Shown here in pieces: positions 29,217-56,361 of a DNA stretch of 64,000 bases. The stretch is taken from NCBI GenBank assembly GCA_032718475.1, contig JAUCBJ010006851.1, positions 15,985 through 79,984 of the forward strand, in the 5' to 3' direction. This stretch comes from Nemertoderma westbladi. Lineage: Eukaryota > Animalia > Xenacoelomorpha. Both the position numbers and the translations under genes were made by a program. Numbering within the stretch: position 1 is the first letter of the stretch; each line of letters opens with the position of its first letter. The notes below the pieces were generated by a model that worked only from the letters and a program-made list of their open reading frames with translations, did no database searches and was not told the DNA's origin.

Positions 29217-29938
29217 GTGCCATGGCTCACGTAACTCACCACGCACATTACCCGTCGATGGTCATGGGACATTCTCTGCCCCCCCCCCTCTCGCCCTCCG
29301 TCGGGTGCCACGGTTCACTCAACTCACCGCGTACATTACCCGTCGGCACTCGTGGGACATTCTCTGCCTCCCCCCCCCCCCCATTCACCATTAATCGCTT
29401 GTGGTGGGGTGCCCGCAGCCCCCCCCCCCCATCCGTCACCTCTTACTTCGCCCCCCACGCTCCCCTCTAGTCGACGCGTTATTTCTACCCTCATTGGGTT
29501 TATTCACCCCCGCTACTCTCTGCTGAACTGCGTAGCCTTGCAGGCTCTCATTGGGCAGATCGCTTGTTATTGGGATCGGAAATAAATGAATACCAGCTGC
29601 ATCAGTTTATTAATGGTCGACATACAGAACAGCATATCAAACAATAATATGAACCAACAGACCAACGAACACACCCACCACCTTACAGCACATCAGTACA
29701 GCAGTACAGTAGGTACCGGTAATGGTTACTGTACCTACAGACCTAGAAGATAGGAAAGACTGAATACCGGAATACCAGAAGAGGACCGGTAGGTAAAAGA
29801 CCAGTAGGTTTGATCTAACCACCACCAAGCCAGGGTCTACTAGAGCCCTAACAATACATAATCTAACATCTCCCCCAAGAACAATGTAGGAGACATTTGT
29901 ACTGAAAAAAAAAATCCAACCACCACCAATAGGTCAGT

Positions 29939-32900
29939 TCATTGAACTCCGAATCTTGCTGGTTGCTTGTGAGTTCTCGAACAGCGCCTGGGAAGATCAT
30001 CAGCAAACTGTACCTGTTTTTGAGGCGTTATGTCACGAAGAGAAGAGTCATCTGGGATGGAACGCAGATAACGACGATTTCTCCAATACACCCGACCATT
30101 GTCTAGTTCTATCCTGTAATCTCGCCTAGTACCACGGGAAAGGACGATACCAGATTTGTTCCATAGTTTGGAATGTGCACTCTGGATGCAAACTCGGGAA
30201 CCAATAGGAATCGGGGTTAAGTCGTGAGCATGATCATTATAATATGATTCAGTTGCTGAAGACGTTGAAGGACCAGGGATAGGGAATGAATCACCTACCA
30301 GTGTGGACGAATGAGCTGGTATAGTGGAACGGAGGGATCTACCGAACAACAGTTGAGCTGGAGACATACCATGTTCTTTAGGAGTATTTCTCCATTCCAG
30401 CAAACCACGAACAAAGCAAGTAGAGTTTAGATCTCCTTTGATATCTAACTTTTTTATCAATGATTTCATGGCCTTTACAGCCCCCTCTGCATGGCCATTA
30501 GACTGAGGATACTCAGGAGTAGAATACTCAGGGATGATATTCCATTCGGATAAGAAATCATGATAACGTGCTGAATTAAATTGTGTACCACCATCAGAAC
30601 GAAGGCGTTTTGGAATACCAAAATCTTTGAACCATCCTCGAAGAGCTGAAATAACTTGAGTGCTGGAAGGATCAGCACGCCAAGAATAAACGCATGGCCA
30701 CCCAGAATATCTATCGACATAAACCAGGTATGACCAGGTGCTGAAGTAGAAGAGATCAGCAGAGCAATCCTCCATTGGAAGACATGGATGAGGGTCGCTT
30801 TGGAGAGACTCTTTAGGTAAACTTGGTTGATAAAGTTGACACTGGGGACAAGAATTGACTATGTTTGTAATATCGCTATTGATACCAGGCCAGAATACAG
30901 TTTGCCTAGCTCTCCTCTTAGAACGTTCAATGCCCTGATGAGCATCATGAAGGTGCTTCAGGACATTCTTGCGGAGGGAAGATGGAATTACAATCCGGGA
31001 ACCTAATAAAAGAAGATTATCTTCACAAGATAACTGATGTCGCACATTCCAGAATGGGCGTATGTGCACAGAACATTGTGTGGATGTTGAGGGAAATCCA
31101 GAAATAACAGCATCCACCAAAGCCATGTAAGAAATATCATCCTTTGCAGATGATCGGATAGACTCAATATATGAATCCTTGAGATGACTTGGAGCATCAG
31201 AGACAACAATTGAGGTAGACACGTGACGAATGACTGCAGAAACATGGTCATTGACATCTGTATCACAAAGAATATCCTCTGGAGTAGGATCCGAAACAGG
31301 GGCACGGGAAAGTGCGTCTGGAATGGAATGTTCACTTCCCTTTCTCCATGTTGTATTGAAGAAATAAAGGCTGAGTTTCTCTTTAAGACGTTGGATTCAG
31401 GGATTGTCTATCATATCCAAAGTATAATTGTTTAGGATAGGAAGAAGAGGTTTATGATCAATTACCAACTCGAATGATGGGAGACCCATAAGATACACCT
31501 TACACTTCCTAGTAGCCCATACGACGGCTAACAGTTCAAGCTCTATCATTGCATAACGTGATTCAGTGTCAGTGATGAATCTTGAACCGCACTGAATGAG
31601 TTTCCAAAAGCTGTCGTGTTTCTGAAGAAGTGAGAAACCAAGACCCTTCAAACGTGAAGCATCTGTCTGCAACATTGTAGGCAGCAATGGATCATATGGA
31701 GCTAGAATTGGAGGACTTACAAGAGCTTTCTTAACTGCTTGAAATGAAGTTTCTTGGGGTTCTGACCAACAGAAGACATTTTTAACTTTAAGAAGGTCCC
31801 GAAGAGGGCCTGCCTTTTCGCTAATAGAGGAAGTGAACTCACCTAGTTGGTTCACAAGACCCAAGAAAGATCTAAGTTCAGAAATGTTGGTCGGAACAGG
31901 AAAGTCAGCAATGGCATTAAGTTTGGAAGGATTTGCTTGAATACCATTACTACTAATTATATATCCTGCGAAGCACACCTCAGGGGTAGCTAATTTGAAT
32001 TTCGCAGCTTTGAGACTGATCTGGTGTTCACGACACCGATCTAGAACGGCAATAATATGTGCGAGATGACTGTGACCATCGGAAGAATGAATTAGAATGT
32101 CATCAACTACTTTAGCAATGCCATCCAATCCCTGTAAAGCTATATCACCACGAAGACAAAACACATCTTGTGCTGAAGTTAATCCCATGGGATTCCTAAG
32201 AAACTTGAATCGACCCCAAGGGGAAATGAATGTTGTTAAATTCTGACTGGATTCATCAAGAGGTATCTGCCAATATCCATCGTTGGCATCTAATGAAGAA
32301 AAGAAGCAATCTGATGGAGAAATCGAATTGACAGCCTCACGAGGAGTAACCGATGGATGATATGGACGTTTAACATGTTTGTTTAGTATAGTCAAATCAA
32401 CACAAAGGCACCAACCGCCTGTTGGTTTAGGAACTACAACAAGAGGATGGACCCAATCAGTTGGTTCGTTATCCAGAACTGGACAAATAATACCTTGTTC
32501 AACCATTTTCTCTAAGCGAGCTTTAGCCCAGTCTCTAATGGCTAAAGGAAGTTGCCTGGCTGTATGAATAGCATATGGTTGGGCATCATCTTTTAATGAA
32601 ATGGTCATGGGTGGGCCATTCATTGGACGAAGTTTGTCATCTTGGTCAAAAACATCAGAATAAGCCTTTATGAGTTTCTGCTTAACAGTATCCAATTCTG
32701 AAGGCGAAGGTTCATCAGAAAGATGGAAGTCAACCTTGAATGATGTTGTTGGAATTGAGTTTTTAATACCAATAGGTGACATATTAGAAGAATTAGAAGA
32801 AGCAACAGACTGAATTTCTGCCACTGGTTCTGGATATGAACTTGAAATAATTCCTAGGTTTTGACAAGTATACCATGCCAAAAGAATTCCATCGACTTCT

Positions 32901-33190
32901 TCACAAATGCAGATGAGCTCATCAGTTGAATATTCGCCATAGGAAATTGTGGTGTGGAGGAGACCAATGCATGAAAGAAGACTACCATTAGCAGCAGAAA
33001 GATCTTCATGGTCTAGTGGAAGTAAATTTTCTTTGTCAATAGAAAGGGCCTGAAGAAAATCTAAGCCGGCAACAGTGGCCTCAGCACCAGTATCTGGAGT
33101 TGCTTTAAGAGAACCGAATAAATGTCCTGTTGCGATATGACAGAAGTTCAGAAATACTTTCGGAGCTTGTCGATTATGGCTTCCAACCAA
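29939..33190 (-). pseudogene. Gypsy pol with one in-frame TGA (31397-31399)
   Basis: PDTGA protease, VVDD RT, QTDAS RNase H; NP*IQRLKEKL continues in frame into the integrase (HDAHQG...CPQC, RSDGG, SNGHAE). Confidence 0.92.
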
Positions 33191-34269
33191 ATTGAGGGTG
33201 ATGCGGCTAATGGGTTTTGTCTTGGAGATTTTGAAGATGAATTCGAATTATTTTGTTTAGACCGACAAACATTGGCAAAGTGGCCTTCCTTGCCACAATA
33301 AGAACAATCTTTGTTCCTTGCTGGACAGTCAGCGCGTTTATGGTCTGTTTTACCACAACCATAACAAACTATAGGGCCAGTAGTTGAAGAATTGTTTCTG
33401 GAATTGGATTTAGAAGAATTGTTGCGCCTGGAATTATAAGGCTTTTTGTTGTGAAAACGAGATTGTCGAGAAGCTTGGTTGATTGAAGGGTTTTTTAAAT
33501 CCTGAACTCCAGCTTGGGCTGATTCCTCAGACCTACAAAGATTTACAGCATCTTCAAGCGATGGAAATGGAGTCAATGCAAGAAGTTTAGATCTGGTGTC
33601 CTCGCAAGAAATACCAGACATAATTCGAGTAGTCAACCGCCGATCGAAACAATGACGACATAGATCAGCATCTCGAGCAAGATCTTTAATAGCAACCAGG
33701 TAGCTATCAAAATTTTCACTTTGACATTGTTTCCTATTATCAAAATGAACACAATCAAGGGCTATATTCCGTTTACCACGAAAATAACTTTGAATACAAT
33801 CTATTAACACCTGAACTGTTAAAGGATTATCATGTGTGTCAGGAGGAATGTCAATAACTTGTTCCAGTGTAGAGCGCATACCTATAGAAAGGTAACTCCT
33901 GAAAATACAGATTTGCCTATCCCTAGCCATTCTATCCATCTGAAATGCAGAATAATAATCCGCCCAAACCGACTTCCAAGTTTCAAATTTTGCTAAACTG
34001 AAATCCGGTTCTAAAGCAATTGGTGCTTTAATTTGAAGATTACGAGGGGTTGAGTCAGCCTGATGAACTACAGGTTGATGTGGTTGACCAAGTAATTGTT
34101 GAAATTGATGGGCATTTTGGGCTTGGGATTGTGCTAAGGAATCAGCCAAATCGCGTTGTGATTTAACTAAAGCATGTAGAAGAGCTGAGGTGGGATCAGG
34201 ATTACCACGACCAGCCAACTGTTCTCTTAAAACCTCCAGTTCAGTTTCGAGTTCAGCTTTAGTAGGCAT
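33148..34269 (-). CDS. Gypsy gag
   Basis: 373 aa; two CCHC knuckles CYGCGKTDHKRADC and CSYCGKEGHFANVC. Confidence 0.88.
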   Translation of the reverse strand: MPTKAELETELEVLREQLAGRGNPDPTSALLHALVKSQRDLADSLAQSQAQNAHQFQQLLGQPHQPVVHQADSTPRNLQIKAPIALEPDFSLAKFETWKSVWADYYSAFQMDRMARDRQICIFRSYLSIGMRSTLEQVIDIPPDTHDNPLTVQVLIDCIQSYFRGKRNIALDCVHFDNRKQCQSENFDSYLVAIKDLARDADLCRHCFDRRLTTRIMSGISCEDTRSKLLALTPFPSLEDAVNLCRSEESAQAGVQDLKNPSINQASRQSRFHNKKPYNSRRNNSSKSNSRNNSSTTGPIVCYGCGKTDHKRADCPARNKDCSYCGKEGHFANVCRSKQNNSNSSSKSPRQNPLAASPSIWLEAIIDKLRKYF

Positions 34270-34800
34270 ATCTGACTGTTGAATATTAGAGAAATTTCAG
34301 GAAATTAAATATCCGAAAAAATTTGAAAAATCCAAAAAGAAAAAATTTTGCAAAAATGTGCAAAACTTTTGCACGCAAATCAGCCCAAATCTGTAGTTAT
34401 CGAATACTGACAGACTGGAATACCGCCTGACTGCTGAATGTGAATTGAATAGGTACCGGTAGTTATAATTAGGCTAGCGGGCGTCGCTGCCTACCCCTCA
34501 CGGCCCCCGGACAGCGCAAGGTCCTCAGCGCCGATGTAGGCTACCGTCGTCGCTGTGTTTTGCGCCAACGTAGTAGCTACACAACGACAACGATAACCAG
34601 CGCGAGTCACTCCACTGTCCGTCCCAAGGGCTTAGTTTAGAAGAGTACTGGAGTAGGTACACCACCAGAAGTATAGGTAGGTAGCTAGGCCTAGATCAGA
34701 ATCAGTAGAGGCGACCGGTAGAATAATATTGAATTATCTAACCTGCTGAATGCACTGGAATGTCCACCATTTGAATAGGGTTGTAGGAACATCAAGTACA

Positions 34801-34811
34801 TCACTGCGCCA
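34801..34811 (-). promoter_or_regulatory. Gypsy canonical tRNA primer-binding site TGGCGCAGTGA (tRNA-Ser-like)
   Basis: Begins with TGG immediately after the 5' LTR; tRNA identity inferred from typical tRNA-Ser 3' ends. Confidence 0.75.
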
Positions 34812-35305
34812 TATTGGGATCGGAAATAAATGAATACCAGCTGCATCAGTTTATTAATGGTCGACATACATAACAGCATATCAAACAATAATATGAACCA
34901 ACAGACCAACGAACACACCCACCACCTTACAGCACATCAGTACAGCAGTACAGTAGGTACCGGTAACGGTTACTGTACCTACAGACCTAGAAGATAGGAA
35001 AGACTGAATACCGGAATACCAGAAGAGGACCGGTAGGTAAAACACCAGTAGGTTGGATCTAACCACCACCAAGCCAGGGTCTACTAGAGCCCTAACAATA
35101 CATAATCTAACACTTGTTCTCCCTACTTTTGTATTAATTGCACCGTTAATAGTTTCGCCCTGCTGGTCCACTGCGTTATTAATTGCATTATTTTGATTAT
35201 TTTCTCCACTGTTATTTATTATATTATTATTTGAATTGTTATTATTTAAATTATTTGAATTATTTTGCCCTACATTATTTATATTATTATTTAAATTATT
35301 TTGTA

Positions 35306-37198
35306 TATTCGAAGAGACGGTAACAATACCTGCAATATCCTACTGTAAAGTTTGTGAATCAAATCATAAATCCGACCTTCTCACCAAAACAGTAAACTCT
35401 AAGTAAGCGAATATATTGCAGTATCGATCTCTTATAACCGGTGAGGCAGAAAACAGTCTACGAGCAGACAAACTTCGATAAAACAAAATCCCGCGCAGCG
35501 AATCCTAGGCTCGTAGGAATCCAGGGCTCGTATACTTTGCCGCGGTGTGATTTATATGGTTGGGCGAAAGGGACGCTAGCTAGGTACAGAGGCAGAGATT
35601 TGGAGATGTCTAACTAGCGGGCAAAGCACAGTACGGACAAAAGTTAATTTTATATATTTTGAGGTGTAAATAATTTCTAACGCGCGTGTTAATTCTGAAC
35701 GGTCAAAGCAGTTTTGCTCCTTCACATATATAATTACTGGGTACGGTGTGCATTTTACGAATATTCTAATTTTGTAACTTGTAGGTCCAATACTCACGAA
35801 TGATAAGGTTCCTTCCCCTCTTGCGTATTTCCAGGACTCAAATTCAGGCATAAGGTTAATGCTACGCCCAGAATTCGGCAATTTTAATTTACCAGGCCCC
35901 TAATACTAAGAAGAAATGTGTTAGTTTACTACAGTAGGCGTACGGTTACAAATAGCTATCCTGGCGTCCTATCTAGAATTTTAGTCACCTAGGTAGGCTG
36001 GGTAACTTCCTATCAAGACGTTGGCGGGGACACGGTAGATGTTAGTATATCCCTAATAGCCTCAATTTATTTTCGCCTAGCCGTAAACTGCCCTACCGCC
36101 TGAACGGTACAATCCCAATTCAGGTGAAACACAGCAACCCTCCTAGCCTACAAGTTCTAATGCAATGGACACCGTTGCACTACAAATAGTCACAGACGCA
36201 CCTGTACTTAGCAAGAGTTAGGCGTACAGTTTGCTGCACCCTACCAATGTGTATGCTTTGTACCGGTGTGCCCACGTCCTATCTGCGTACTAGTATCTCT
36301 GCCTGCTCTCTCCCCCCCGTAGGAATGTGAAGGTCTACTGTGGTTTTTTCCTGAATTAAGACAGTACAGTCCCTAAGATGTAATTTTAGGCTCACAGCGT
36401 GTCACTACTTCTACCTTTTGATCTTTGGTCTTACGCTTAGGTAGCAAGGCGTCGAACGCTGTCTAACCTTTCAGGCGATGGGCGAATAACTGAGATGATA
36501 TTGCGGGTTGTCTCTTGTCTACATTCCCGTGATGTTCCCGTTCATTGCTACGGCCCGATCTCTAGCCGGCCATCCTGTTCTTAAAGGTGTTCACCGTAGT
36601 GAATCATGATGAAAAGAAAAGGCAGGTAGCGGTATTTCTGAATTTATTGCAGATAATAATACAAAATGTAATCTGAAAACTAATGACAGAATAAACAAAT
36701 ATCAGATAACTCAGAATAATTGTGTAAGTGAAGAGTGAAAATTAGATAACTAATGAACAAATCGCACCTTTATATACTAAATTTGTGCTGCAATCAATCG
36801 AGAAAATTCTCGATTGTTCTATAGGTTCTAACAGGTTTTTAAAGATAGCTATTGGTCCAGCTAATATATAACTTGTACGACATTGGTTACAATCAAATAA
36901 CTACAGTCTCATTGGTTAATCTAGGTACAAACAAATGCAATTTAATTTGTAGCGGTTAATTTAAATGTGTTGAAATTCTGTACAAAAAATAATTCGCACT
37001 TACTAGGATTCGAACTCAATACCTACTACACATATAATTTCCAACGCTCTACCAACTGAGCTACTGAACCACTTGAATAATAGGCGTACAAATAGAAATA
37101 GCAATACAAATGAGGACTCAATGTAATCTTTTACAAAGTTAATTCGAATAAAAATAAAATTTTGAAAATCCACGGCATTTAGGGAATATAATTCTATA
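35306..37198 (-). repeat. BEL-C 3' LTR (1893 bp)
   Basis: Direct repeat of 50027-51932. Confidence 0.97.
36984..37070 (-). ncRNA. tRNA-like Pol III unit in the BEL-C 3' LTR
   Basis: A box/D-arm TAGCTCAGTTGGTAGAGC, B box GTTCGAATCC, T6 terminator; acceptor and anticodon stems do not pair. Confidence 0.6.
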
Positions 37199-37747
37199 CC
37201 GCTCCATGAAAACAGGATATTATCGTGCATAAAATATACGGTTTTCACCAATAATCAATCAAACTATAGAATACTTAGGGCGTACTTACATATTTACAAT
37301 TAAATTTCAAACAATACTTCCTTTCTACATAATGATTCGATACAAATAATTACAAATTCAAACTTTACGTATTTAAGTCTTTACTAAGTAAGTACAATAT
37401 AAATCTAAATTAAATTCACCAATATAAATCTATTGCATCTCAATATTGCATAAATTCAAATAATTACAAATACTTTCGTGCCTAAATGTAGATTGCATAA
37501 GTTCGGACTAATTACAAATATGAGTCTTTCTAAGCACAAAACTTTCTAACTATAAAACTTTCTAAATACAAAATATAACACTTTACAAATGAAACTATAA
37601 GAAAGGCCCACGAGTCTTCCATCTACTCTTACTTTCTATTTCACTGTAAATACAAATACTGCTTATAAGATATAAATTGCATAATATTCGGAACAATATA
37701 AATTGCATAAGTTCAGAATAATCTCAAATATAAAATATAAATCTTGC

Positions 37748-37870
37748 AAAATATAAGTTCTTACTAAATATAAATCTTACTAAATATAAATCTTACTAAA
37801 TATAAATCTTACTAAATATAAATCTTACTAAATATAAATCTTACTAAATATAAATCTTACTAAATATAAG
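37748..37870. repeat. 16-bp tandem repeat in BEL-C 3' UTR
   Basis: aaatataaatcttact, about 6 copies. Confidence 0.9.
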
Positions 37871-37978
37871 TTCTTCCAGAATACAAACTTACTAATTAAA
37901 TATAAAACATATAATTCAAATAAATCACAAATTCACAAGAAAGGCTCACGAGTCTTCCGTCCACCCTTGCCCTCCCTT

Positions 37979-39717
37979 TTATCGCTTTGTGGATCGAGCC
38001 CTGCCGCGTCCTCGAAAACTGCGCACAGGTGACTTTGCTCGCGATATGGGACTTGTGGGGCGAGTCACTGGTTTCGTTTGGACGTTGAGAGACGGTGCGA
38101 CTATTTCCTCGCAAATTCGTCTATTTGGCATCCCAAAACCTCGACCGATTCCTCGTGACCGATCAGTTGTCACTACAGTTGGTAGAACGTCTGGGAACGC
38201 GCGAGAAGCGGACGACGCAGACCCAAGAGCAGCTTGCGCCCCCTTCTGATCAGCTGGTGTATGTCCCGATCCTCCTATTGGTTCTCTAGGAAGCGATACC
38301 GTATCCCGAGTAATTCGAATAGTCGGCTCAACTCCCTTGCGTTCTTCTATATTAATAATTTTCTTTAATTGTTGGCCCACTTTCTGGACCCGTATGATCC
38401 TACCCTGTCCGTCCTCCCGAGGGTGACGTGCAGACGGCGCAACCGGAGTGGCTGGTATGTCGGTCGCCTCTAGTATCTCCTCTTCCTCGAATACGCTCGC
38501 TCGTATACGTTTATGGTAAAACGCGGCTCGGTACGCCCATGCGACGGTTAACCAAGCTCCTTTATTCCGTTTTTCAGTTCGGAAACGATCGAATTCACCA
38601 TACGTGATGCGATTAACGACTTTCTGAAAATTCCACGTGTTTTTGTTATCCGGGTGAATCTGTAGTAGATACTCGCACACTACTCGGAATCCACTGTCGT
38701 GGGGCAAAATATCGACTACCTCGATAAGTTCGTCATATTGGGGCATAGCGGAGATATATCCTTCCGACATCATCGTTTGGGGATTTACCGCCCAAAATCC
38801 AAGATGCGCTCTCATCGGAAACCGTCTTCTTTGTGCCGATACATGTTCGTCGGCTAAATCTTCCCACTCATCAAATAATTTCCTCACGAGTTTTACAGAT
38901 TCGTGTTCATAAGGTATGTCTCTTAGTTGGCATTCAGATGCTCGATGTCCCTTTATATTACAATAAGTACATTGAGCCATAAATCTCCAGCAAGTATAAA
39001 AGGTATGAGACCCTTGATCCCCACACCATCCACAGATTAGCTGAGTCGTAGTAATGTGCTTTCCACTGCACTTGGTCAAATGATGTCCAGCGACGCCACA
39101 TTTACCACACATCGTATTGGCAGGGTACCACACTCGTTCGTATATAAGATCTCCAATCGGTCGAGCGCTTCCTCCCACACTATAATCGTAATCATCTGGA
39201 TCTATGGGTTGGTAGGTTTCTGAGGGTTGTATACAAACTATAGCATCTGTTGCTTCAAGTTGTCGAATCTCCGTCTGAGATTTCTTCGGGAGGTTCCTTT
39301 CTATCTCAAGAAGTTCCTCTAAAGGATCGTCAGTGATCGTAGAAGTTACTTCGAAATCATCACCAAGGTGACCGATAGGCGCGCGCGTCTGCCGTGATTC
39401 ATCCGTAATCTCCACGATACGTTCTCCTTCATAGGGTAACAATGTAAACATAGATGGTCTTTCGATAAGAGATCCCGCACAGCGAAGATACACGTCTCGA
39501 AATATACTAAATCCTGCTCGAGTAAAGGCATTACACTGAGCGTCGGAGTTGTAGAAGGGTTGTCATATTTAGTCTTTGCGAGTTTCGCTGTACTTTCTGA
39601 TAATTCCTTTATACCAAATATGGTGTAGTCCTTAGCTCCAAATCGTTCGAATGGCGCTGCTGCTTCCTCTTGGATATCATATCCCCATCTCGGCTCTCCA
39701 TGTATCCCCTTCTCCAT
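37979..39717 (-). CDS. BEL-C accessory ORF(s): 123-aa ORF overlapping a >500-aa CCHC zinc-knuckle, RG-rich protein
   Basis: CGKCGVAGHHLTKC, CGWCGDQGSHTFYTC, CTYCNIKGHRASEC; tail RSRGIGRGFG...RSFRGRGRARSTKR; lies between pol and the 3' LTR; long frame open from about 39562. Confidence 0.75.
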
Positions 39718-40380
39718 AATTAGAGGTGTAGTTACATAATCATTACTACTAGAGGGAATACAACAGAGTTTGTATTTAGTTGTGAGGAGACGTGAGAGTT
39801 TCGTCTGCCCTTTGGGCTCGACAACGCTCTAACCTCCTACCCATAGCCTAGGATCTAGGGTTTCTTTAATGACACGCTGCTTCTTATCTAAAATTTTTTG
39901 CCGAAATAAAAACGAATTTGGGCTAAACTGGCTGTGAGTCTAAAATACTCACTTTTTGATCCCAAACTATTATCAGAAAATAAGCAGTCAAGAATTAGTA
40001 ATAAATATAGGGGAGTCTATTTATTGACATAACTTATTGAAACAAAACCGTGTAAAATTTAATTAAAATTTTAAGAAAGGCTCGCAAGTCTTCCTCTCTT
40101 GTTTCTCTTAATTTTAAGTTCCACCCGACTGTACCCTGAAATCTATTCACTGGAGAAAATTTTTAAAAATTTTTCAAATCCAAATGGATTGTCTAAAATT
40201 TCGAAAATGTCTCAATATTGTGAGTTCCAAGTAGAATTCCATTTCTTATACCTACAAATCCCGCTCCTATGTGACACATAAGGGTACTACCCTCAATGTT
40301 CACATATAAAGACAATGGAATTCTACCGCTGTCCTTACTACGGTGTACAGGTACGTGGAAATCTATTTGTAAACTCCTAA

Positions 40381-43300
40381 TTATTTACTAGTATTAGGTG
40401 GAGATTTGTAGTCTCCAGACTCGTTACGAGTCTCTTCAAGAAGTACGAGACGTTGAGTCGGTCTGTCAACTGTACGACCGTCAATTGTCCGTACCGTCAC
40501 AGTTCTTGTCACTCCATCCATAGATGGATGTGTGTCTAAAATTACACCTGTTATCCAGAAGCGTCTTTTTAGATTCACTTCTGCTAACAGCACGTGATCT
40601 CCCGGCTTTAATGCGCGGGTGTTATTGTACCATGTTGTTCTGGCAGAAATAGAGGGCAAATAATGGTTTTGCCATATTTCCCAGAATTTGTTAGCCAGTA
40701 GTTGCGTGATTTTCCACGCTTTTCTACCGTAGCTATCGCTTTCTATTGGAATAGAAATAGGCGTCAATGTGGTCGGTGCCTGCATAAGCAGGTGTGCCGG
40801 TGTTAAAGCAAACTGAGATTGTTTGTCATCGGGTACTAATACTATTGGTCTAGTATTTAGTAGTATTGCCTCGATTTCAACAAACAGTGTTGTCAGTTGG
40901 TCGTCTGTCAATATGTGGTTTACTGGAATGACCTTTGCCATTGCCGTTTTGATAGATCTAATCAGTCTCTCCCAGACTCCGCCTCTCCATGGACTATCTG
41001 GAGGATTAAACTTCCAAACAATCTTGTGAGGTTGTAGTTCGTTTGAGATTTGATCATGATCTAATTTCTTAAAGGCTCTAGCAATCTCATTTCGAGCACC
41101 AACAAAGTTTGTCCCTTGGTCTGAGTACAAGCATTTCACTAGTCCACGTCTAGCGATAAATTGCCGCAATGCTAGTATAAACGCGTTGGTGGAAAGATCC
41201 ATCACACGTTCAATATGAACTGCCCTACTGGACATACATGTGAAAATCAGTCCCCAGCGTTTTACTAGTATACGTCCACGTTTCGTATGTATGGGACCAA
41301 AGCAATCAATTCCAGTCTCTGTAAAAGGTGGTCTGAATGCTTGAAGTCGTGCTTGTGGAAGTTCACTCATTTCTTGGGTACCTATTCTAGAATGTACCTT
41401 TTTACAAATAATACACGTACGTGTCACTGAACTTAACGCTTTACTGGGTCTAATTAATACAAATCTTGTACGTAAGTAGGAAAGACAGTGGTGTCTTCCA
41501 GCGTGTTTCAGATGTAAATGTGCGTCCAGTATCATTGCACGTTGTAGTTCGTGATGTTGCGGTATTATTATTGGGTATCTAAAGTTTGTGTTAAAGTCAA
41601 TGTTTTGAAGCCGAGATTTATGACAAATTAAGCCATTATAAATAATCGGACTCCAACTCAGTATTGGTGACGACTTGATTGGTTGACCTTGATTTATAGA
41701 TGTGAATTCGCGTGCGAAATATCGCAGTTGGTAATGGCAAATTAATTTAATCTCACACCTGTCAATCTCAGCCAATGTAAGTCGACGTGTAAAGTCGCGT
41801 TTGCCTTTAACGTATTGTACAAAACGTACAATCCACGCTAATTTTCGGCAAGCGTTTGTCCAAGAGTCTGTTAAGTTTACAATACGGTCGACGTAAGTAT
41901 TTGTGACGTCATCAGGTAAGTCAATGGAGATTTTGGAAGGTTTTGATTTACTAGAAGGGCCCACGGGTCCGCCGGTAGGTATTCCCTTGTTGACTGTTGA
42001 TCCGTCCGGGTCTACAAGTAATTTGTCCTTCTTCGTCTTCTTACCTTGATTGTCAGTACTTTGTAAGTCGATCGTTAATGGTGGTTTGAACTCTATGGGG
42101 TCACTGGGTTTCGGTAAACTTAATTTTCTGCCGACATTAATCCCAGGTTTCACCATAGGTTGCAAGTTTGGTATGTCTCTTGAGCGCAGAGTAACACCTG
42201 TATTTACATTAGCGTAGGTACTACCCACATCTGTAATACATGAGGTTTCACCGTGCTTGTGGTTGCTCAAGTGTGTCAAAATTGGTAGTTTGTCAATACA
42301 AGGCCGCTCCAATAGGGAAACTGCGGCTTCACTATTTGTCGGTATGTTACTAGTGTCTGGTAGAACATTGTGTGACATGTCTGGTAAAATGTTTCGCGGA
42401 ACATCCGGCGAAATATCTAGTGACGTGTCTGGCAAAACGTCTGGTTGACCGTCTAGTAACGTGTCTGGCGATACGTCTGGTAACGTATCTGGTTGTTTGT
42501 CAATAGAAGGCCGCTCCAATAGGGAAACTGCGGCTTTACTATTTGTCAATATGTTACTAGCGTCTGGTAGAACATTTTGTGACATGTCTGGTAAAATGTC
42601 TGGTTGGCTGTCTAGTAACGTGTCTGGTTGACCGTCTGGCGATATGTCTGGTGTAGAAAGGCTCGCAAGTCTTCCTCTCTTGACCTTTGAAGTTATATCC
42701 TTCCATTTCGCCTTCGGTTTCTTCTTGAGTTTAGCCGCCAACGTCTTTTTCTTTGCCTTCCCCTTTTTTGGTTTCTTGATTTCGGCGTCCTTAGGGATGG
42801 TGTTAGACTTGTTGTCGTATAACGGTGGCCAATCTTGTGTCGATTTCTGCAAGAATTGGGGTCCGTGTTGCCAAAATTCTTTGTTTTCCGGTTTACAGAA
42901 TTCCTCAGGCATCATTCCTCGCGATGCAATATCGGCTGGGTTTTGTGGTCCGGGACAATGTCGCCAATCTTCTTTTATTGAACGGTCTAGAATTTCTGCG
43001 CGACGGTTAGCTACGAATGTCTTGAATTCAAGTGTGTCGTTGTTTATGTAAAATAAAACCAACGTCGCGTCAGTCCAATAAAATATCTGTAAACTTGACT
43101 GTAGTTCTGTCTGTATAAGGTTCACGATGGTGGTTGACAGTGTTGCGGCTTGTAGCTCAGCTCGTGGTGTCGTCATATACTTAGTAGGCATTGTTTTTGC
43201 CTTAGAAGTAATGAGCGAAACATCGAATTCTTCTGAGTCTACTTGTCTGCGCAAGTACGCTGCCACACCAAAACCGTTGTCACTGGCGTCAGAAAAACAA

Positions 43301-46300
43301 TGTAATTCCAAGTTGTCAGGAAACGTTGTTTGTAATGGAAAGTAGACTCTGGGTATGGAATAATCCTCTAGCGAAGATAATTCTGCCTCCCAGGTCTTCC
43401 ATAAGTCCACTTGGTCTGATGAGATCGGCTCGTCCCATGTCAGTCCATCCTTCCAAATACTGCGCATATAAATGCGGGCTTGCAGTATTATTGGACTGAT
43501 GAATCCTAATGGATCGAACAATCGGCTCAATTTTGACAAGCATGATCTCTTTGTCAGTGTGTTTTCTTGACTGTCCAGTCTCACCTTTACTCGAAAGTTG
43601 TCCGTGTTTGGGTCCCAAAAGAGTCCCAACACCTTGGTCGTCGGTAGTGGTTCGAACTCTAGGTCTATGTCACCATCTCCACGCTCAGTCGTTCCGAATG
43701 AGTCTACTAATTCGGCACTGTTTGAGGCGAATTTGGTGAGGTTAAAACCTCCGCCCGCTAAGCAGTCCCGTAATTGATGTGCTACTGTTGTAGCACGTTC
43801 TACTGTGTCGCAACTCTGTAATCCGTCGTCGACGTAAAAGTCACGTTCCACAATCCTAATTATCTCTGGGTCATACATGTGTTTCTGATCCCTAGCGGCT
43901 TGTTTTAGGGCGTACATCGTACAGTTTGGGCTGTCCCTGGCACCGAAAACGCGAACTTGCATTTGGTAAGTCGCCGGTGGTAGACTTAAGTCTCCTTCCG
44001 GATACCAGAGGAACCTCAAACTGTCTCTGTCTTGCTCTAACGCTCTCACTTGGTGAAACATAGCTTCAACGTCACAAGTAAAGGCTACTTGACGCTGACG
44101 GAAGCGCATAATCACCCCCATAAGATAATTATTCATGTTTGGTCCATCCATCAACTCGCTATTGAGGGACATTCCCTCAAACAGAGCCGCACAGTCATTG
44201 ACTACACGTACTTTGTCTGGTTTGTCGAGGTGTCTCACATAGTGATGTGGCAGGTAGTATGTCTGGTTAGTCACTATCTCTGGGTTAGTCATTCGGATAG
44301 CGTATCCCTTAGTCAAATACGTCTCCATCTGAGTGTTGTACTGCAGATGGGCTTTCTCGTCCTTTAATAGACGTTGCCGTATTGAGTGTAGACGTCTTAA
44401 AGCTAGTGGGTAGTTATTTATAAGTTTAGGACTTTGGCTACGCCATAACATCCCCACCTCATAATGTCCGTCCTTCGTCTGGCGGATAGTATCTTCCATG
44501 ATCTTCAAAGATTGTTTCTCCTGTTCCGACATACATGGTTCGTAGCTACCAGGTTCAGCTGTATCTTGTTCTAACCACCTGATAGTCTTCTCCGTTAATT
44601 CTTTGTCCAATGCAGCTTGTTCCACTTGATGATTTCTCAACGCTTCATCATCGATATCGACGGGCATTGTTGAGGTTATTGGGGTAGGTAGACTCGCAAG
44701 CCTTCCGGCGTTATCATCTGTCGTCGATGGAATCTCTAGCTGACTCGTCTTCTCCCCAAGTTCTAAACTCACCTGGTGGATTAGCTGCTCCTTGTGACTT
44801 ATCATACTAGTTACACGTCTGTCATGTTTTGTATGTAAGGTAGTATGGTCCACGTCGTGTGAAAAGGAATGAATTGAATTTGTAGTTAATAAACTACATG
44901 TACTTTGTACATCGTCTTCCTCGTCACTTATGTCCAGTGTGCGCACAGGCGCTCGAGTATACCACCCTATCGGCGTTCTACAGGCGTATGCGTTTCCCGC
45001 TACGATTGCCGATGGTCTGGTTTTCCACACTTGATGTAGGTTGAATTGGTCTGTCCCGATCAGCATTGCTACCGATCTATAATTGACAGGACATTCAGGT
45101 ACACCAAGGTGTCTGAAATACTTACGGTCCTCCAAGGATTGTTCTGGGACAGGACCTAGTAGGTTACTAAAGTCTTTTGTGGCCGCAAAAGTCAAATCCT
45201 TGAAGGGTAACAAAGACCTCTCCTTTTCGCTGTGTTGCGATTTTGGAAGAAGAGTGTCTAAGTTTAACTTAACTCGTGTCACTGGTATTGCACGTTGTCC
45301 GTGCATACTACTCACGGTGTAACTGACGCGCTTACCTTGTCTGAGATCCGTCACTACATCAGCTATCTGCTCATCCACGTAGCTGTGAGATGAGGCTGAA
45401 TCCAGGATAGCGTAGATTCTCTTGCTCCCCTTTGTGCCAGTAATCTTCATCGGAATTACACTGAATCCCTTTAGTTGGTCAGTCGTCAGAAGCGCGATCG
45501 ATGGTTGTTCGTCTCCATCAGAATATACGTCGTCGTCTTCTGACTCTTCGTCCGACGATCCGGATTGTTCTGAGAAGCAATCCTTAATATGTGTCACAAA
45601 GGTCGGAGTCGTTTTCGATTCTCGATTTTTGTAGGCCGCATTACATCTCGCTGCTGCTTCCGGTTGTTCCCTGGCGAAGCGTTTTGTCGGTGTGTGGCTG
45701 TCTGTGTGGAGCAGACCGTCGTGGTTGCGTCCACAGGATGGACAAGTGTCGGTATTTGGGCAATCCTTGCGAACGTGTCCGTGTCGCGTACACCGCCAAC
45801 AAGAGTCCAATGGCCGTATCTGCAGCCGTCGTTCTTCCGAGTTTAACTCGCGAAACTGTCGACAACCTCTCAACTTGTGACCGATAAACCGCTTACCTAG
45901 ATGCTCGCAGTATTGGCAGCCGCTGAAGTCGGTACTGAGTTGCTGTCTCGTCTGTTTTGTCCCAATGGGCGCAGATACCCTACTACCGTCCGAGAATTGT
46001 CGTGATTCCGTCGGTGTGGCGTAAGTGGCCGTCTTGGTGGATGTTGTCTGGGGTTTTTGTCGGTTTGAGGATGGCAAGGTGATTCCTTCTGCCACGATGT
46101 GCTGGTCAGTGTAGTTGGATCGAGTTTCTACCACTGCCTCCCTGGATATCAAAAGGTACACATCCTCCAGTTTTAAGAATCCACCCCGCTCTTCCCGCTG
46201 GTATTCGATCTTTCTCCACTCCCGACGAAGTCGATGGTGGAGTCGTCCTATGATCTTTAATAGGACTGTAGGGGTATTCCCGTAGTCAAGTTGTCCAATG

Positions 46301-49209
46301 GATCTCAAAGTAGTGATAGCGTTCTTTATCTCGTCAGCCAGTTTTAATAAGTCGACGGGTTTAGTGATAGCCCCTCCCTTACAGAGTTCCTCTATCACTG
46401 ACCTGGCCATGCTGACTGTACCTCCGTATATCGAAGTTAAACGATCGTACGCTAGTTCGAAAGCGTCCGGTACACCAACGAAGGTCTCCGCCAAACGTTT
46501 AGGTTCTCCTGACAACGTTTGAAGCAGGTAATTAAACTTCTCCCGTGATGTAAAGGCGCACACGGCGATCTGAGATTCGATATAGTCTACGAAAGTGTGC
46601 CAGTGTTTTGAGCTACTGGAAAACTTCGGTGGTTGTTGTACCGGCAATCCTTGTCTGGCTGCGAATTTCGCTATCTCCTCGGCCACGTTCAAAGTTTCGC
46701 GTCCTTGGTTGGCAATCGAGTTGATGTTCTCTCGTCTTGGCGCTTTTCCTTGATACGAGGTGTTTCTCGAAGGTATTGGTCTTTGCGGATCCTTCGGGTG
46801 GCTATTGTGTTCAAATTCGGTGTTCCTCGAACTATCGGTTTCAACTTCCTCCAAGCGTTCCTCAATCTGGGCCAACTTATTGACAACTGGTCGCAGAATG
46901 TCGGCGAATTGTTGTGTACTGATCGCGTCTGTTGGTTGTAACGCCTTTTGTGTTGGTGTATTCTGTGGAGGATTGTCGATAAATGAATTATCCGAACGCT
47001 CACGTTTACATTTGTCGGCCGCTCCTGTTCTAAATACCTCGCATTCCGGGTAATCCGACTCGCTCGAAGTACTACTGTCACCTGGATACGGTGGTCGACG
47101 TGCTCGAGTCCGTTGCGCCGTTCGAATCCTAACATTCCGTTTTGGAACATCGTCTACTGGTTTCCGTTGTTCGGTAGGCTCGCAGGTCTTCCTCGAAGTC
47201 GTAGATTGCGATGTAAACTGATTAAACGGTCGCGTATCCACTGGTCTCCGTTGCTCGGTAGGCTCGCAGGTCTTCCTCGAAGTCGTAGATTGCGATGTAA
47301 ACTGATTAAACGGTCGCGTATCCACTGGTCTCCGTTGCTCGGTAGGCTCACAAGTCTTCCTCGAAGTCGTAGATTGCGATGTAAACTGATTAAACGGTCG
47401 CGTATCCACTGGTCTCCGTTGCTCGGTAGGCTCACAAGTCTTCCTCGAAGTCGTAGATTGCGATGTAAACTGAACCGGTGGTCGAGTGACAGCGTTTGAA
47501 TCTAAAGGCCTTGTAGGCCTAAACGTCATTGGGTAAGCGTAGTGTGTAACGGGTTTAGGTGTCGACGGTGGACTCACCTGTTTAGTCGTCAGTAATACAG
47601 GTTCGACTAATAAACTACTACGATCTGTAATCAGCGGGTTACTTACCTTGACTTTCGGAATAGGCGATGACGTTGCTCTTGGCGGTGTAAACTTGTCCGG
47701 AATAACAAACCTGTGTTCCGTCGCACCATGGATAGGAGAAATATTACTACTACCAGCAATCGAAACAGGTTCCTTTGTCGTAACCGGTGCAAACATAGGA
47801 GTTACTTTAGGAAATCTTTGACATAAGTCTTTAACTAATTGTCGTTCTCGTCCAGGTGCTCCTATCGAACCTTCCTTCATTCGTTCCTGAATTTGGCGGT
47901 GCCTTACCTCTATCTGGTCTAAATCATGTCCGTCTCGAGATCTCATCGATCGATCGCGGGCTTGTAGATCCAGATCTTCCTTGGCGTTGGCTAATTCTCT
48001 CGCCTTCTTCTCGAGTTCGAAACGAAGTTTAACTTCTTTCTCGCGTTGTTCCGTTTGTTGTTGTTGCGCCTCGAACTCTGCTTGTCGTATAGCTGACTGA
48101 GCCTTTATTTGCCGTGTTTTCATTTCGGTTCTCGCTTCTGAAGCTAGCCTTTGTCGCTCTAACTCGGCCGCAGCTGTTCGTTGCGCTAACTCGGCCGCTG
48201 CCGCTTGTTGTGCAATGTCCAACTCTAACCTTTCCACTTCGGCTGCTTCCAACTCAGCTTGTTCTTGCAGATGAGAAATTCTCGCAACATTTGCGACGCG
48301 TAGTTTCTCTTCCTCTACAGCTGCTTGTAACGTCAATAACTGAGTTTGTTCCTCGATTTCTCGTTGTTGTCTGTAGAGCTGCTGTTGTCGAGCAATTTCT
48401 GACGTAGCCATACTCACCTCGCCAATTTCGCTGCGAATACTCACCAGTGATTGATTTAGTGTTCCCGGTGCCAGTTCGATTTGTGCGAGCGAAGTTTCCC
48501 TCGTAGCCTCCGGCACGGTTTCCCAATCTCCGACGTCCTCGCCGCACATGCGTAAGTGATCTGTCAGGTGTTTCAATTGTCCATCTAGCCTATACAGTTC
48601 CTGTTCTTCCTCGGGTTGTAATAATTCGTCCGAAACTGACTCACCTAACAACTGGTCCGCTTGTTCCTGTTGTATCTGCCTAATCGTCGACTTAAACTGA
48701 ATCAGTTTCTCTCTAGCGATCATTAGTTTCTCGAGGATTCTAAGCTGAGTGTCCATATCCTGTCTCTGTCTAGCTAGATCTTGTAGACCAATTAGGTTAT
48801 CTACGGACTTATATACTTTACTCTGTACTCTCACCTGTAGAGTGTAGAACTTGAACCGAGACATCGGAGCGGTTAACTCGTCTAATATGCGTTGGCCTTC
48901 TCCAATACTCCTGGTAATATGCGCCATGTAACCGCCGACGCTTCTAACCACACTCTCCTGGCTTCCTACTGAACTTACCATGTGCGTTTCCCTATATCTA
49001 GGTTGCGGAACAGTTAGAAAGTCCTCGGTCCTGCCGTCGCCTCGTACTACGGCATCCGGTACTCCCGTTGGATGTACTGGTGACGCACACGGTGTAGGTT
49101 CGGTAGGCTCGCGAGTCTTCCCCTGTTGTTCTTCCGCTGCTGACTTATCCGCGTCACATGAGTCATAGTCGGTAGGTGTATTCTTCGTATAGTCTTGTTT
49201 GTCACTCAT
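40381..49209 (-). CDS. BEL-C Gag-Pol polyprotein (2942 aa)
   Basis: Gag knuckles (CQYCEH, CWRCTRHGH, CPSCGRNH), ILDSAS protease, FYVDD RT, LHCFSDAS RNase H, HHCC and GIDCFGP/YSDQG/VWERL integrase. Confidence 0.97.
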   Translation of the reverse strand: MSDKQDYTKNTPTDYDSCDADKSAAEEQQGKTREPTEPTPCASPVHPTGVPDAVVRGDGRTEDFLTVPQPRYRETHMVSSVGSQESVVRSVGGYMAHITRSIGEGQRILDELTAPMSRFKFYTLQVRVQSKVYKSVDNLIGLQDLARQRQDMDTQLRILEKLMIAREKLIQFKSTIRQIQQEQADQLLGESVSDELLQPEEEQELYRLDGQLKHLTDHLRMCGEDVGDWETVPEATRETSLAQIELAPGTLNQSLVSIRSEIGEVSMATSEIARQQQLYRQQREIEEQTQLLTLQAAVEEEKLRVANVARISHLQEQAELEAAEVERLELDIAQQAAAAELAQRTAAAELERQRLASEARTEMKTRQIKAQSAIRQAEFEAQQQQTEQREKEVKLRFELEKKARELANAKEDLDLQARDRSMRSRDGHDLDQIEVRHRQIQERMKEGSIGAPGRERQLVKDLCQRFPKVTPMFAPVTTKEPVSIAGSSNISPIHGATEHRFVIPDKFTPPRATSSPIPKVKVSNPLITDRSSLLVEPVLLTTKQVSPPSTPKPVTHYAYPMTFRPTRPLDSNAVTRPPVQFTSQSTTSRKTCEPTEQRRPVDTRPFNQFTSQSTTSRKTCEPTEQRRPVDTRPFNQFTSQSTTSRKTCEPTEQRRPVDTRPFNQFTSQSTTSRKTCEPTEQRKPVDDVPKRNVRIRTAQRTRARRPPYPGDSSTSSESDYPECEVFRTGAADKCKRERSDNSFIDNPPQNTPTQKALQPTDAISTQQFADILRPVVNKLAQIEERLEEVETDSSRNTEFEHNSHPKDPQRPIPSRNTSYQGKAPRRENINSIANQGRETLNVAEEIAKFAARQGLPVQQPPKFSSSSKHWHTFVDYIESQIAVCAFTSREKFNYLLQTLSGEPKRLAETFVGVPDAFELAYDRLTSIYGGTVSMARSVIEELCKGGAITKPVDLLKLADEIKNAITTLRSIGQLDYGNTPTVLLKIIGRLHHRLRREWRKIEYQREERGGFLKLEDVYLLISREAVVETRSNYTDQHIVAEGITLPSSNRQKPQTTSTKTATYATPTESRQFSDGSRVSAPIGTKQTRQQLSTDFSGCQYCEHLGKRFIGHKLRGCRQFRELNSEERRLQIRPLDSCWRCTRHGHVRKDCPNTDTCPSCGRNHDGLLHTDSHTPTKRFAREQPEAAARCNAAYKNRESKTTPTFVTHIKDCFSEQSGSSDEESEDDDVYSDGDEQPSIALLTTDQLKGFSVIPMKITGTKGSKRIYAILDSASSHSYVDEQIADVVTDLRQGKRVSYTVSSMHGQRAIPVTRVKLNLDTLLPKSQHSEKERSLLPFKDLTFAATKDFSNLLGPVPEQSLEDRKYFRHLGVPECPVNYRSVAMLIGTDQFNLHQVWKTRPSAIVAGNAYACRTPIGWYTRAPVRTLDISDEEDDVQSTCSLLTTNSIHSFSHDVDHTTLHTKHDRRVTSMISHKEQLIHQVSLELGEKTSQLEIPSTTDDNAGRLASLPTPITSTMPVDIDDEALRNHQVEQAALDKELTEKTIRWLEQDTAEPGSYEPCMSEQEKQSLKIMEDTIRQTKDGHYEVGMLWRSQSPKLINNYPLALRRLHSIRQRLLKDEKAHLQYNTQMETYLTKGYAIRMTNPEIVTNQTYYLPHHYVRHLDKPDKVRVVNDCAALFEGMSLNSELMDGPNMNNYLMGVIMRFRQRQVAFTCDVEAMFHQVRALEQDRDSLRFLWYPEGDLSLPPATYQMQVRVFGARDSPNCTMYALKQAARDQKHMYDPEIIRIVERDFYVDDGLQSCDTVERATTVAHQLRDCLAGGGFNLTKFASNSAELVDSFGTTERGDGDIDLEFEPLPTTKVLGLFWDPNTDNFRVKVRLDSQENTLTKRSCLSKLSRLFDPLGFISPIILQARIYMRSIWKDGLTWDEPISSDQVDLWKTWEAELSSLEDYSIPRVYFPLQTTFPDNLELHCFSDASDNGFGVAAYLRRQVDSEEFDVSLITSKAKTMPTKYMTTPRAELQAATLSTTIVNLIQTELQSSLQIFYWTDATLVLFYINNDTLEFKTFVANRRAEILDRSIKEDWRHCPGPQNPADIASRGMMPEEFCKPENKEFWQHGPQFLQKSTQDWPPLYDNKSNTIPKDAEIKKPKKGKAKKKTLAAKLKKKPKAKWKDITSKVKRGRLASLSTPDISPDGQPDTLLDSQPDILPDMSQNVLPDASNILTNSKAAVSLLERPSIDKQPDTLPDVSPDTLLDGQPDVLPDTSLDISPDVPRNILPDMSHNVLPDTSNIPTNSEAAVSLLERPCIDKLPILTHLSNHKHGETSCITDVGSTYANVNTGVTLRSRDIPNLQPMVKPGINVGRKLSLPKPSDPIEFKPPLTIDLQSTDNQGKKTKKDKLLVDPDGSTVNKGIPTGGPVGPSSKSKPSKISIDLPDDVTNTYVDRIVNLTDSWTNACRKLAWIVRFVQYVKGKRDFTRRLTLAEIDRCEIKLICHYQLRYFAREFTSINQGQPIKSSPILSWSPIIYNGLICHKSRLQNIDFNTNFRYPIIIPQHHELQRAMILDAHLHLKHAGRHHCLSYLRTRFVLIRPSKALSSVTRTCIICKKVHSRIGTQEMSELPQARLQAFRPPFTETGIDCFGPIHTKRGRILVKRWGLIFTCMSSRAVHIERVMDLSTNAFILALRQFIARRGLVKCLYSDQGTNFVGARNEIARAFKKLDHDQISNELQPHKIVWKFNPPDSPWRGGVWERLIRSIKTAMAKVIPVNHILTDDQLTTLFVEIEAILLNTRPIVLVPDDKQSQFALTPAHLLMQAPTTLTPISIPIESDSYGRKAWKITQLLANKFWEIWQNHYLPSISARTTWYNNTRALKPGDHVLLAEVNLKRRFWITGVILDTHPSMDGVTRTVTVRTIDGRTVDRPTQRLVLLEETRNESGDYKSPPNTSK
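47150..47475. repeat. 84-bp in-frame tandem repeat (x~4) in BEL-C gag
   Basis: QFTSQSTTSRKTCEPTEQRRPVDTRPFN repeated. Confidence 0.92.
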
Positions 49210-51499: not shown

Positions 51500-51652
51500 A
51501 CCTTTATATACTAAATTTGTGCTGCAATCAATCGAGAAAATTCTCGATTGTTCTATAGGTTCTAACAGGTTTTTAAAGATAGCTATTGGTCCAGCTAATA
51601 TATAACTTGTACGACATTGGTTACAATCAAATAACTACAGTCTCATTGGTTA
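51500..51652 (-). promoter_or_regulatory. BEL-C LTR Pol II promoter (three CCAAT boxes plus TATATAAAGG)
   Basis: Plus-strand attggt at about 51586, 51616 and 51646 (30-bp spacing) upstream of cctttatata at 51501-51510. Confidence 0.6.
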
Positions 51653-51717
51653 ATCTAGGTACAAACAAATGCAATTTAATTTGTAGCGGTTAATTTAAAT
51701 GTGTTGAAATTCTGTAC

Positions 51718-51804
51718 AAAAAATAATTCGCACTTACTAGGATTCGAACTCAATACCTACTACACATATAATTTCCAACGCTCTACCAACTGAGCTACTG
51801 AACC
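51718..51804 (-). ncRNA. tRNA-like Pol III unit in the BEL-C 5' LTR
   Basis: Identical copy of 36984-37070. Confidence 0.6.
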
Positions 51805-56200: not shown

Positions 56201-56361
56201 GGTGAACAGTCAGTATGTGTTTTAGTGCTCCAGGTTCGTGGTTGGTCAGTTAAGATAGTTCTTCAGTGTTGCTTCAGATAATAGATTTACGTTCTTATAA
56301 TCAAAGCCATCAGATGTTTAGGCCAAAGTCTGAAACTTCCAAAATCAGAAGTACAGAAGAT
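53272..56361 (-). mobile_element. BEL-D: 5' portion of a BEL-A-family element (gag start, leader, LTR start)
   Basis: MADTKQTLSDSL...IAVEEHQ is homologous to BEL-A MSDTRQNLSDSL...IAVEEHQ; the 2.7-kb leader is colinear with 7443-10500; interrupted by Copia at 56362. Confidence 0.88.

Follow-up and report, generated by a model that had tools for sequence, protein, structure and literature searches.

A non-envelope accessory gene encoding three zinc knuckles in a very young BEL/Pao retrotransposon of Nemertoderma westbladi

We analysed a 64-kb stretch of Nemertoderma westbladi contig JAUCBJ010006851.1 (the whole stretch is called the window below) and observed a 16.6-kb LTR element on its minus strand, at 35306-51932. 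Between the end of its pol (40381) and the start of its 3' LTR (37198) lies an open frame, here called the accessory gene, that runs on the minus strand from 39562 to 37979, in the sense direction relative to gag-pol. The first-pass annotation of this DNA, made from the letters alone, had claimed a sense frame of more than 500 codons at this position. The frame indeed has 527 codons from stop to stop, a length expected by chance from the base content at about 2e-13. The features of the element, in the order of its own strand, are the following.

50027-51932, minus strand: 5' LTR of 1.9 kb with TA...TA ends, 98.95% alike to the other LTR, with a 5-letter target duplication
49778-51201, minus strand: intron 1 (GT-AG), which starts within the 5' LTR, spans U5 and the primer-site position and ends at the leader exon (joint 49776->51201)
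49599-49777, minus strand: leader exon of 179 letters without an ATG, flanked by the two joints of run X4
39749-49598, minus strand: intron 2 (GT-AG) of 9850 letters, spanning all of gag-pol (joint 39748->49599)
40381-49209, minus strand: gag-pol polyprotein gene of BEL/Pao type, uninterrupted (PF05380, PF03564, PF18701; triple Cys-His box)
39749-39775, minus strand: splice acceptor of the accessory gene, pyrimidine tract and AG (X4 joint at 39748)
39562-39717, minus strand: probable opening 52 codons of the accessory gene, beginning at the strong ATG 39717 (ATG context; coding score)
39561-39562, no strand: break point, at which other copies have an additional stretch of about 200 letters or more and near which the coding signal switches frame
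37979-39562, minus strand: main open frame of the accessory gene, 527 codons (ORF list)
38930-39109, minus strand: three CCHC zinc knuckles with spacers of 11 and 6 aa (motif scan, Pfam)
38498-38920, minus strand: aromatic-rich middle domain with no detectable relative, predicted at low confidence to be mostly helical
37982-38185, minus strand: basic, Arg-rich C-terminal tail (composition)
37199-37978, minus strand: 3' untranslated stretch, AT-rich (25% GC), with a short tandem repeat and ending in a short purine tract
35306-37198, minus strand: 3' LTR (LTR pair alignment)

The element is a member of BEL/Pao (Belpaoviridae). Its gag-pol is a single frame of 2947 codons with Pao-type gag and pol domains in the expected order of protease, RT, RNase H and integrase (PF03564, PF05380, PF17921, PF18701), and a BEL-type triple Cys-His box at aa 1098, 1137 and 1156. 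The third finger is of the CX2-4CX3HX4H type, a pattern of BEL gag taken from the available text of PMC554778. The integrase region was 35-42% identical to the best 120 of its 1186 matches; these share its domains, and the named ones come mostly from aquatic animals. Tandem repeats at 42283-42650 and 47153-47473 (84-letter units in gag, short ones between RNase H and integrase) contribute to the length of the polyprotein. Across 1906 columns the two LTRs differ at one position outside a single cluster (13 gap letters, 5 substitutions), and since they are near-identical outside this cluster, the insertion is very young. The LTR termini are TA...TA as against TG...CA, and the target duplication flanks 35306 and 51932.

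The U3 of both LTRs holds a tRNA-like stretch (about 51805-51730 and 37070-36995) in which motifs like an A-box and a B-box can be seen by eye; ARAGORN called no tRNA gene anywhere in the window, these stretches included. Upstream of donor 1, a TATA-like box stands at 51510, and AATAAA occurs at 51382 and 50805. Around the element, the window is a nest of further retroelements (1-35112 and 52255-60832), which include two additional BEL-type gag frames, one near 5761-2561 and one near 25425-22447, a Gypsy-type element at 29568-35112 whose LTRs have 301 letters, and a Copia-like frame at 60832-56711.

Splicing was assessed by aligning contigs of the public runs X4, X3, X2 and X5 to 39150-51300 at 90% likeness, 15 of the 18 joints being listed. 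Only two of these 15 have CT..AC on the plus strand, which is GT-AG on the strand of the element. Both come from X4, in one contig each, and neither is among the joints listed for X3, X2 and X5. The contig of the joint 49776->51201 has a shorter side of 25 letters; in the other, with a shorter side of 30 letters, the leader donor (49599) is linked to the acceptor (39748). Both joints have canonical donors and pyrimidine-rich acceptors. An acceptor-like site had been annotated at 39749-39770, with junctions anticipated at 39748 or 39513: the X4 contig joins exactly at 39748, to 49599, while none of the listed joints falls at 39513. X4 is labelled 'DNA?' and has no library record, so it may consist of RNA or of DNA copied from spliced transcripts; in both cases splicing underlies the joint. 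The proposal that the protein is made from a separate RNA is thus supported by one GT-AG joint that skips gag-pol, in one contig of one run. Because the two joints flank one 179-letter exon, both probably lie on one molecule, and the accessory message is likely to be doubly spliced. A second start of genome RNA near 51063 would fall behind donor 1, and so escape intron 1.

We further examined where the coding sequence begins. The gene had been annotated as open from 39750, which did not hold: the main frame begins behind a stop at 39565-39563. Its first ATG, at 39451 (490 aa), has a weak context and is the ninth ATG of the exon. The acceptor is followed by a three-codon mini-frame and then by the first strong ATG, 39717, in a different frame that runs for 123 codons and ends at 39346 in the window copy. 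Contigs of X1, X2 and X4 cease to match at 39561 or 39562 and continue into up to 191-255 letters of different sequence (in one X2 piece, 87 letters ahead of 39562 are unaligned), and none of the listed contigs spans the extra stretch. A codon-position model trained on gag-pol, which found the correct frame in 55/56 and 39/40 held-out windows of the same two lengths, favoured the ATG-39717 frame over 39717-39562 (+9.7 bits, vs -33.9 and -17.5) and the main frame over 39561-39346. The window copy has therefore likely been shortened at 39561/39562, which would have severed start codon 39717 from the main frame. The simplest reading is an internal loss, by which a gene at least 660 codons long would have had its start parted from the remainder. 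The translation of this copy thus probably falls short of the complete protein. Shortened forms occur in the DNA of two studies, and 39420-39572 appears as a deletion hot spot, with three short forms that differ by 36 and 135 letters and keep the same frame relation.

An alternative that concerns expression only is that the copy is unbroken, that the overlapping frames are normal, and that a programmed -1 shift joins the upstream frame to the main one. A slippery-like heptamer does lie in phase at 39514, the upstream frame stays open for 72 codons past the break (the longest such run over the accessory gene), and the length differences among the three short forms are all divisible by three, for which the chance is about 1 in 9. 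However, such heptamers appear 11 times in 2942 pol codons, off-frame runs of at least 72 codons appear 5 times in the equivalent frame of pol, and the downstream hairpin is of shuffle strength (z -0.2 to +0.6; rank 97 of 344 windows). As the additional DNA of other copies sits exactly at the frame change, we regard a programmed shift as very improbable.

When we examined the protein, the three Cys/His knuckles of the first-pass annotation were located at aa 152-165, 177-191 and 198-211 (three against a shuffle mean of 0.0005), where they take up 9 of the 14 Cys. Pfam zf-CCHC matched the knuckle piece at E 0.0023 and 18.4 bits, below its cut-off of 20.8. The middle (aa 215-355) is aromatic-rich as described, with 20 aromatic residues in 141, compared with 4 in 173 for the tail. 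The tail had been called Arg/Gly-rich and basic. It is Arg-rich and basic (13 R, 16 K+R and 3 D+E in the last 68 residues; 5 Arg in the last 12), but the Gly part of the description failed, since the protein has 4 RG pairs against 3.3 in shuffles (P 0.43) and no RGG. As had been noted, the frame of the window copy has no membrane helix (highest 19-residue hydropathy 0.83); it has no N-glycosylation sequon either, and both candidate N-termini were non-hydrophobic in a hydropathy scan of this copy, which probably lacks part of the gene. The window copy's protein gave no match to a Rev-type Leu-rich export signal (two loose matches are at chance level) and two nuclear-import-like motifs, against 0.5 in shuffles (P 0.10). 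SP/TP was not enriched beyond chance.

The three knuckles of gag-pol are intact alongside the accessory set, so the latter is no substitute for a lost nucleocapsid. Compared with the three BEL gags of the window, the accessory knuckles gave best E values of only 0.27, 0.14 and 0.09 and differ in spacing and in the third finger; tblastn of the accessory protein to the element's own gag gave no match. These E values, the spacing and the third finger speak against a duplicated BEL gag nucleocapsid, and the possibility that the gene is a captured fragment of BEL gag was not borne out. Knuckles 2-3 resemble the nucleocapsid pairs of Gypsy-type elements (spacer of 6 aa; blastp E 1e-5 to the Gypsy gag of the window). 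As this pair is Gypsy-like and not BEL-like, the module may come from another retroelement. Pfam detected no capsid or protease family flanking the knuckles in the frame of the window copy.

Relatives were then sought more widely. Among 5.8 billion clusters no homologue was found at near lengths, nor at shorter lengths for aa 140-360; phmmer against 1.84 billion representatives gave two matches, both of them gag knuckles. Viral contigs contained no relative of the accessory protein, and metagenome contigs matched neither it nor the integrase. Solved structures gave just two matches, at chance level, and zf-CCHC, itself below cut-off, was the only Pfam family. The other retroelements of the 64-kb window hold no relative of the gene. 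Since the nearest pol relatives are just 35-42% identical, these blanks say little about how widely the gene occurs. Single-sequence folds reached a mean pLDDT of 37.6 and 39.8, and Foldseek with the 37.6, or first, model, a poor one, gave no match at E 0.001. CERV, the env-position protein of the nematode element Cer1, did not appear in the family, cluster, phmmer or structure searches, which compared sequences other than that of CERV itself.

We observed the accessory stretch in 5 of the 9 public runs listed, from 4 studies, with none recorded as RNA. Four runs (X1, X2, X4 and X5) were aligned over 37880-42250. All four cover the gene, in 30 of 30 bins for X1, X2 and X4 and 27 of 30 for X5, so it is present in other copies and is not peculiar to this one. 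None of the 11 indels listed falls in the 1581-letter frame; 10 lie in flanking non-coding DNA, and the remaining one is a three-letter indel within pol. Gap counts within the frame are 0, 3 or 6 in 16 of the 17 contig pieces listed there (the listing being 32 of 8216 pieces). Gaps preserve the frame in 10 of the 11 listed pieces that differ by 12-18%, two of which are probably one copy in two runs. Pieces with a single gap inside the frame number one in the 37880-42250 alignment and one in the 39150-51300 alignment.

Substitutions were scored from the best-supported 40 of 269 and 40 of 696 rows, a small sample biased to common variants, in which 51 differences in coding frames were scored and non-coding ones excluded. 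Among these best-supported rows, 7 of 14 differences in the accessory frame are synonymous, against 23% of sites (pN/pS 0.31, p 0.027), and neutral evolution, which had been raised as a possible objection, is thus not borne out. The 14 differences create no stop and touch no Cys/His ligand, whereas every alternative frame would acquire a stop from the differences listed. For gag-pol, 25 of 36 differences in the same rows are synonymous (pN/pS 0.13). The accessory gene is old in the family, and its constraint is real, yet weaker than that of gag-pol. Whatever its role, it is probably functional in the family.

Two further observations concern the runs themselves. In X4, loose ends occur on both sides of knuckles 2-3 (38903-39028) at 80% likeness; their source is possibly a more distant family member that is alike in the knuckles only. 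X5, a run with a different organism label, has pieces of the gene on 37992-39300 at 95-98% identity and a depth of about 4-5, which may reflect contamination, diet or a close relative; we do not read these pieces as a sign that the gene moved between species.

What lies in the env position of this BEL/Pao family is thus a non-envelope accessory gene whose reading frame other copies preserve. Single-stranded nucleic acid is the usual ligand of CCHC knuckles and of Arg-rich tails, and for the role of the protein we tentatively favour, by analogy and at somewhat under an even chance, a regulator that binds RNA and acts in trans, much as CERV does in nematodes or Rev in HIV. Splicing out intron 1 would cost the RNA its primer site, and splicing out intron 2 its gag-pol, so the element would have to export RNA in which strong splice sites are still present. 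Three RNA classes would exist, namely the unspliced genome, the gag-pol message and a doubly spliced accessory message, with translation of the last likely to begin at 39717. The protein would bind the element's own RNA in trans through its three knuckles and basic tail, and would let the intron-containing genome and gag-pol RNA evade splicing and exit the nucleus. As the product of a fully spliced message, it would be well placed to control the export of RNA that bears splice sites. The window copy, probably unable to make the full protein, would depend on other copies; the shortened forms in two studies are compatible with such action in trans.

Several results speak against an export role. 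The protein has no match to a Rev-type export signal, import-like motifs at P 0.10 and no RGG box; its relatives are limited to generic knuckles, which link it neither to CERV nor to Rev. Each joint is a single contig from the run labelled 'DNA?', aligned at 90% likeness, and the shorter side spans 30 letters in one and 25 in the other. Constraint in the best-supported rows is below that of gag-pol (0.31 vs 0.13), and two pieces carry single gaps in the frame. A very young copy with gag-pol intact and the gene broken at its start would also suit a dispensable gene. Splicing by itself does not demand an export protein, because an RNA element alone suffices for unspliced RNA export in some retroviruses, as stated in the available text of PMC10309623.

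Instead of export, the protein might be a second, nucleocapsid-like RNA chaperone that folds the genome for packaging or for tRNA-independent self-priming, a role we consider unlikely. Self-priming is a mechanism known from Tf1-type elements. The Gypsy-like knuckles 2-3 and the gag knuckles that were the best library matches would suit a chaperone. By eye, the position behind the 5' LTR begins unlike an 18-letter tRNA-Arg/-Gly primer site. An 11-letter complementarity links the LTR-adjacent 50026-50016 with 51063-51053 in the LTR (expected 0.0004 per LTR), and a predicted fold pairs the two stretches across about 1 kb. This fold carries the primer-position duplex (50026-50016/51063-51053) on into the end of U5. 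The predicted pairing hints at self-priming of the Tf1 type, and agrees with the self-priming criterion in the accessible part of PMC6317226; the same part predicts self-priming for many plant elements and mentions no helper gene. Against a chaperone, gag already has three knuckles, and a protein from a separate message has no demonstrated route into the particle.

The gene could also be a captured piece of the gag of another retroelement, or of a host knuckle gene, now decaying and of little effect, which we judge to be quite unlikely. The relatives found are gag knuckles only, the Pfam score is below cut-off, and damage near the 5' end is seen in the window copy as well as in two other short forms. 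A decaying piece would hardly keep its frame at 12-18% divergence, avoid indels, show a synonymous excess and have a dedicated acceptor in use (in the X4 contig), and no capsid or protease domain was detected on either side of its knuckles. An origin from gag is possible; the data oppose a present lack of function.

That the protein suppresses host silencing of the element, through small RNA or chromatin, seems improbable. The family is high-copy, with diverged and young copies, and the gene evolves faster than pol (pN/pS 0.31 vs 0.13), as would suit host conflict; accessory genes generally outpace pol, however, so the rate is not specific to suppression. Such a role has been hypothesised for rotifer third ORFs (PMC5408684, in the part available), but no motif or relative supports it here. 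The protein has next to no chance of being an envelope or fusion glycoprotein of the kind found in roo, Tas, Cer7 or mosquito BEL elements, as the window copy lacks a membrane helix, a sequon and any family or structure match and has most of its Cys in knuckles, and the annotation was right to call it no envelope.

Taken further, the regulator reading would describe a BEL/Pao lineage with its own complex-retrovirus programme: two introns, three RNA classes, a knuckle regulator in the env slot that sets splicing against genome fate, and tRNA-free self-priming, with Rev-like control having arisen independently from a nucleocapsid-like module. This combined picture is speculative, and we consider it doubtful as a whole.

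When compared with the Belpaoviridae profile (PMC8742986), which describes gag, pol and an env-like gene in elements of 4.2-10 kb primed by tRNA, the element shares the Pao-type pol domains, the triple Cys-His box of gag and a third gene in the env position. It differs in size (16.6 kb with 1.9-kb LTRs, against 4.2-10 kb and LTRs of 0.2-1.2 kb), in having TA...TA ends and, by eye, no tRNA-type site where the profile has a tRNA primer, and in the non-env nature of its third gene. The third genes of BEL elements are envelope-like in roo, Tas and Cer7 and are chuvirus-like glycoproteins in mosquitoes, according to the portions available of PMC554778 and PMC13524379. The available text of PMC3118150 capped full-length elements at an upper bound of 15 kb, and neither it nor the corresponding parts of PMC2774666 and PMC6431247 name a non-envelope accessory gene in BEL elements. 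In the literature covered, namely that outside subscription journals, Repbase and supplementary sequence files, we found no BEL/Pao accessory gene of the knuckle type.

Non-envelope extra ORFs do occur in LTR elements of rotifers (PMC5408684) and plants (PMC6317226). As far as the available parts of these papers describe them, they resemble the accessory gene in lying downstream of pol, in their mixed origin, in being typically spliced and in having mostly no assigned function. They belong to Gypsy and Copia elements and encode exonucleases, esterases and coiled-coil, membrane or plant-specific domains; those parts describe no BEL element with a triple-knuckle product. Non-envelope accessory genes in the env slot are thus known, and one in BEL/Pao is apparently new.

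HIV-1 Rev is likewise made from a multiply spliced message, carries an Arg-rich stretch and exports intron-containing RNA, as proposed for the accessory gene, whose message is inferred. Rev, a protein of about 13 kDa, bears a Leu-rich export signal whose pattern is absent from the accessory protein of the window copy, and has no knuckles.

The closest counterpart is CERV of the Caenorhabditis elegans element Cer1, an env-position ORF that forms part of a 517-aa protein, is expressed from a spliced mRNA, and has a Cys-rich loop required for the export of unspliced RNA (PMC10309623, available text). The accessory gene is alike in position, size and spliced expression, the last seen in one contig of one run. 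The host element is Gypsy/Ty3 for CERV and BEL/Pao here; by the description in the same text, CERV has a C4-type loop and a G-protein-like domain, whereas the accessory protein has three CCHC knuckles. CERV shares exons with gag, while the leader exon of the accessory gene has no ATG, and the function of CERV was tested experimentally, whereas that of the accessory protein is a proposed one. The env-slot genes of LTR retrotransposons mostly have no assigned function, and CERV is the precedent for an RNA-export factor among them. If the reading proposed here is true, regulatory accessory genes extend to BEL/Pao, where the ICTV profile has only env-like third genes, and the accessory gene would offer a concrete case for how retrotransposons export intron-containing RNA from the nucleus.
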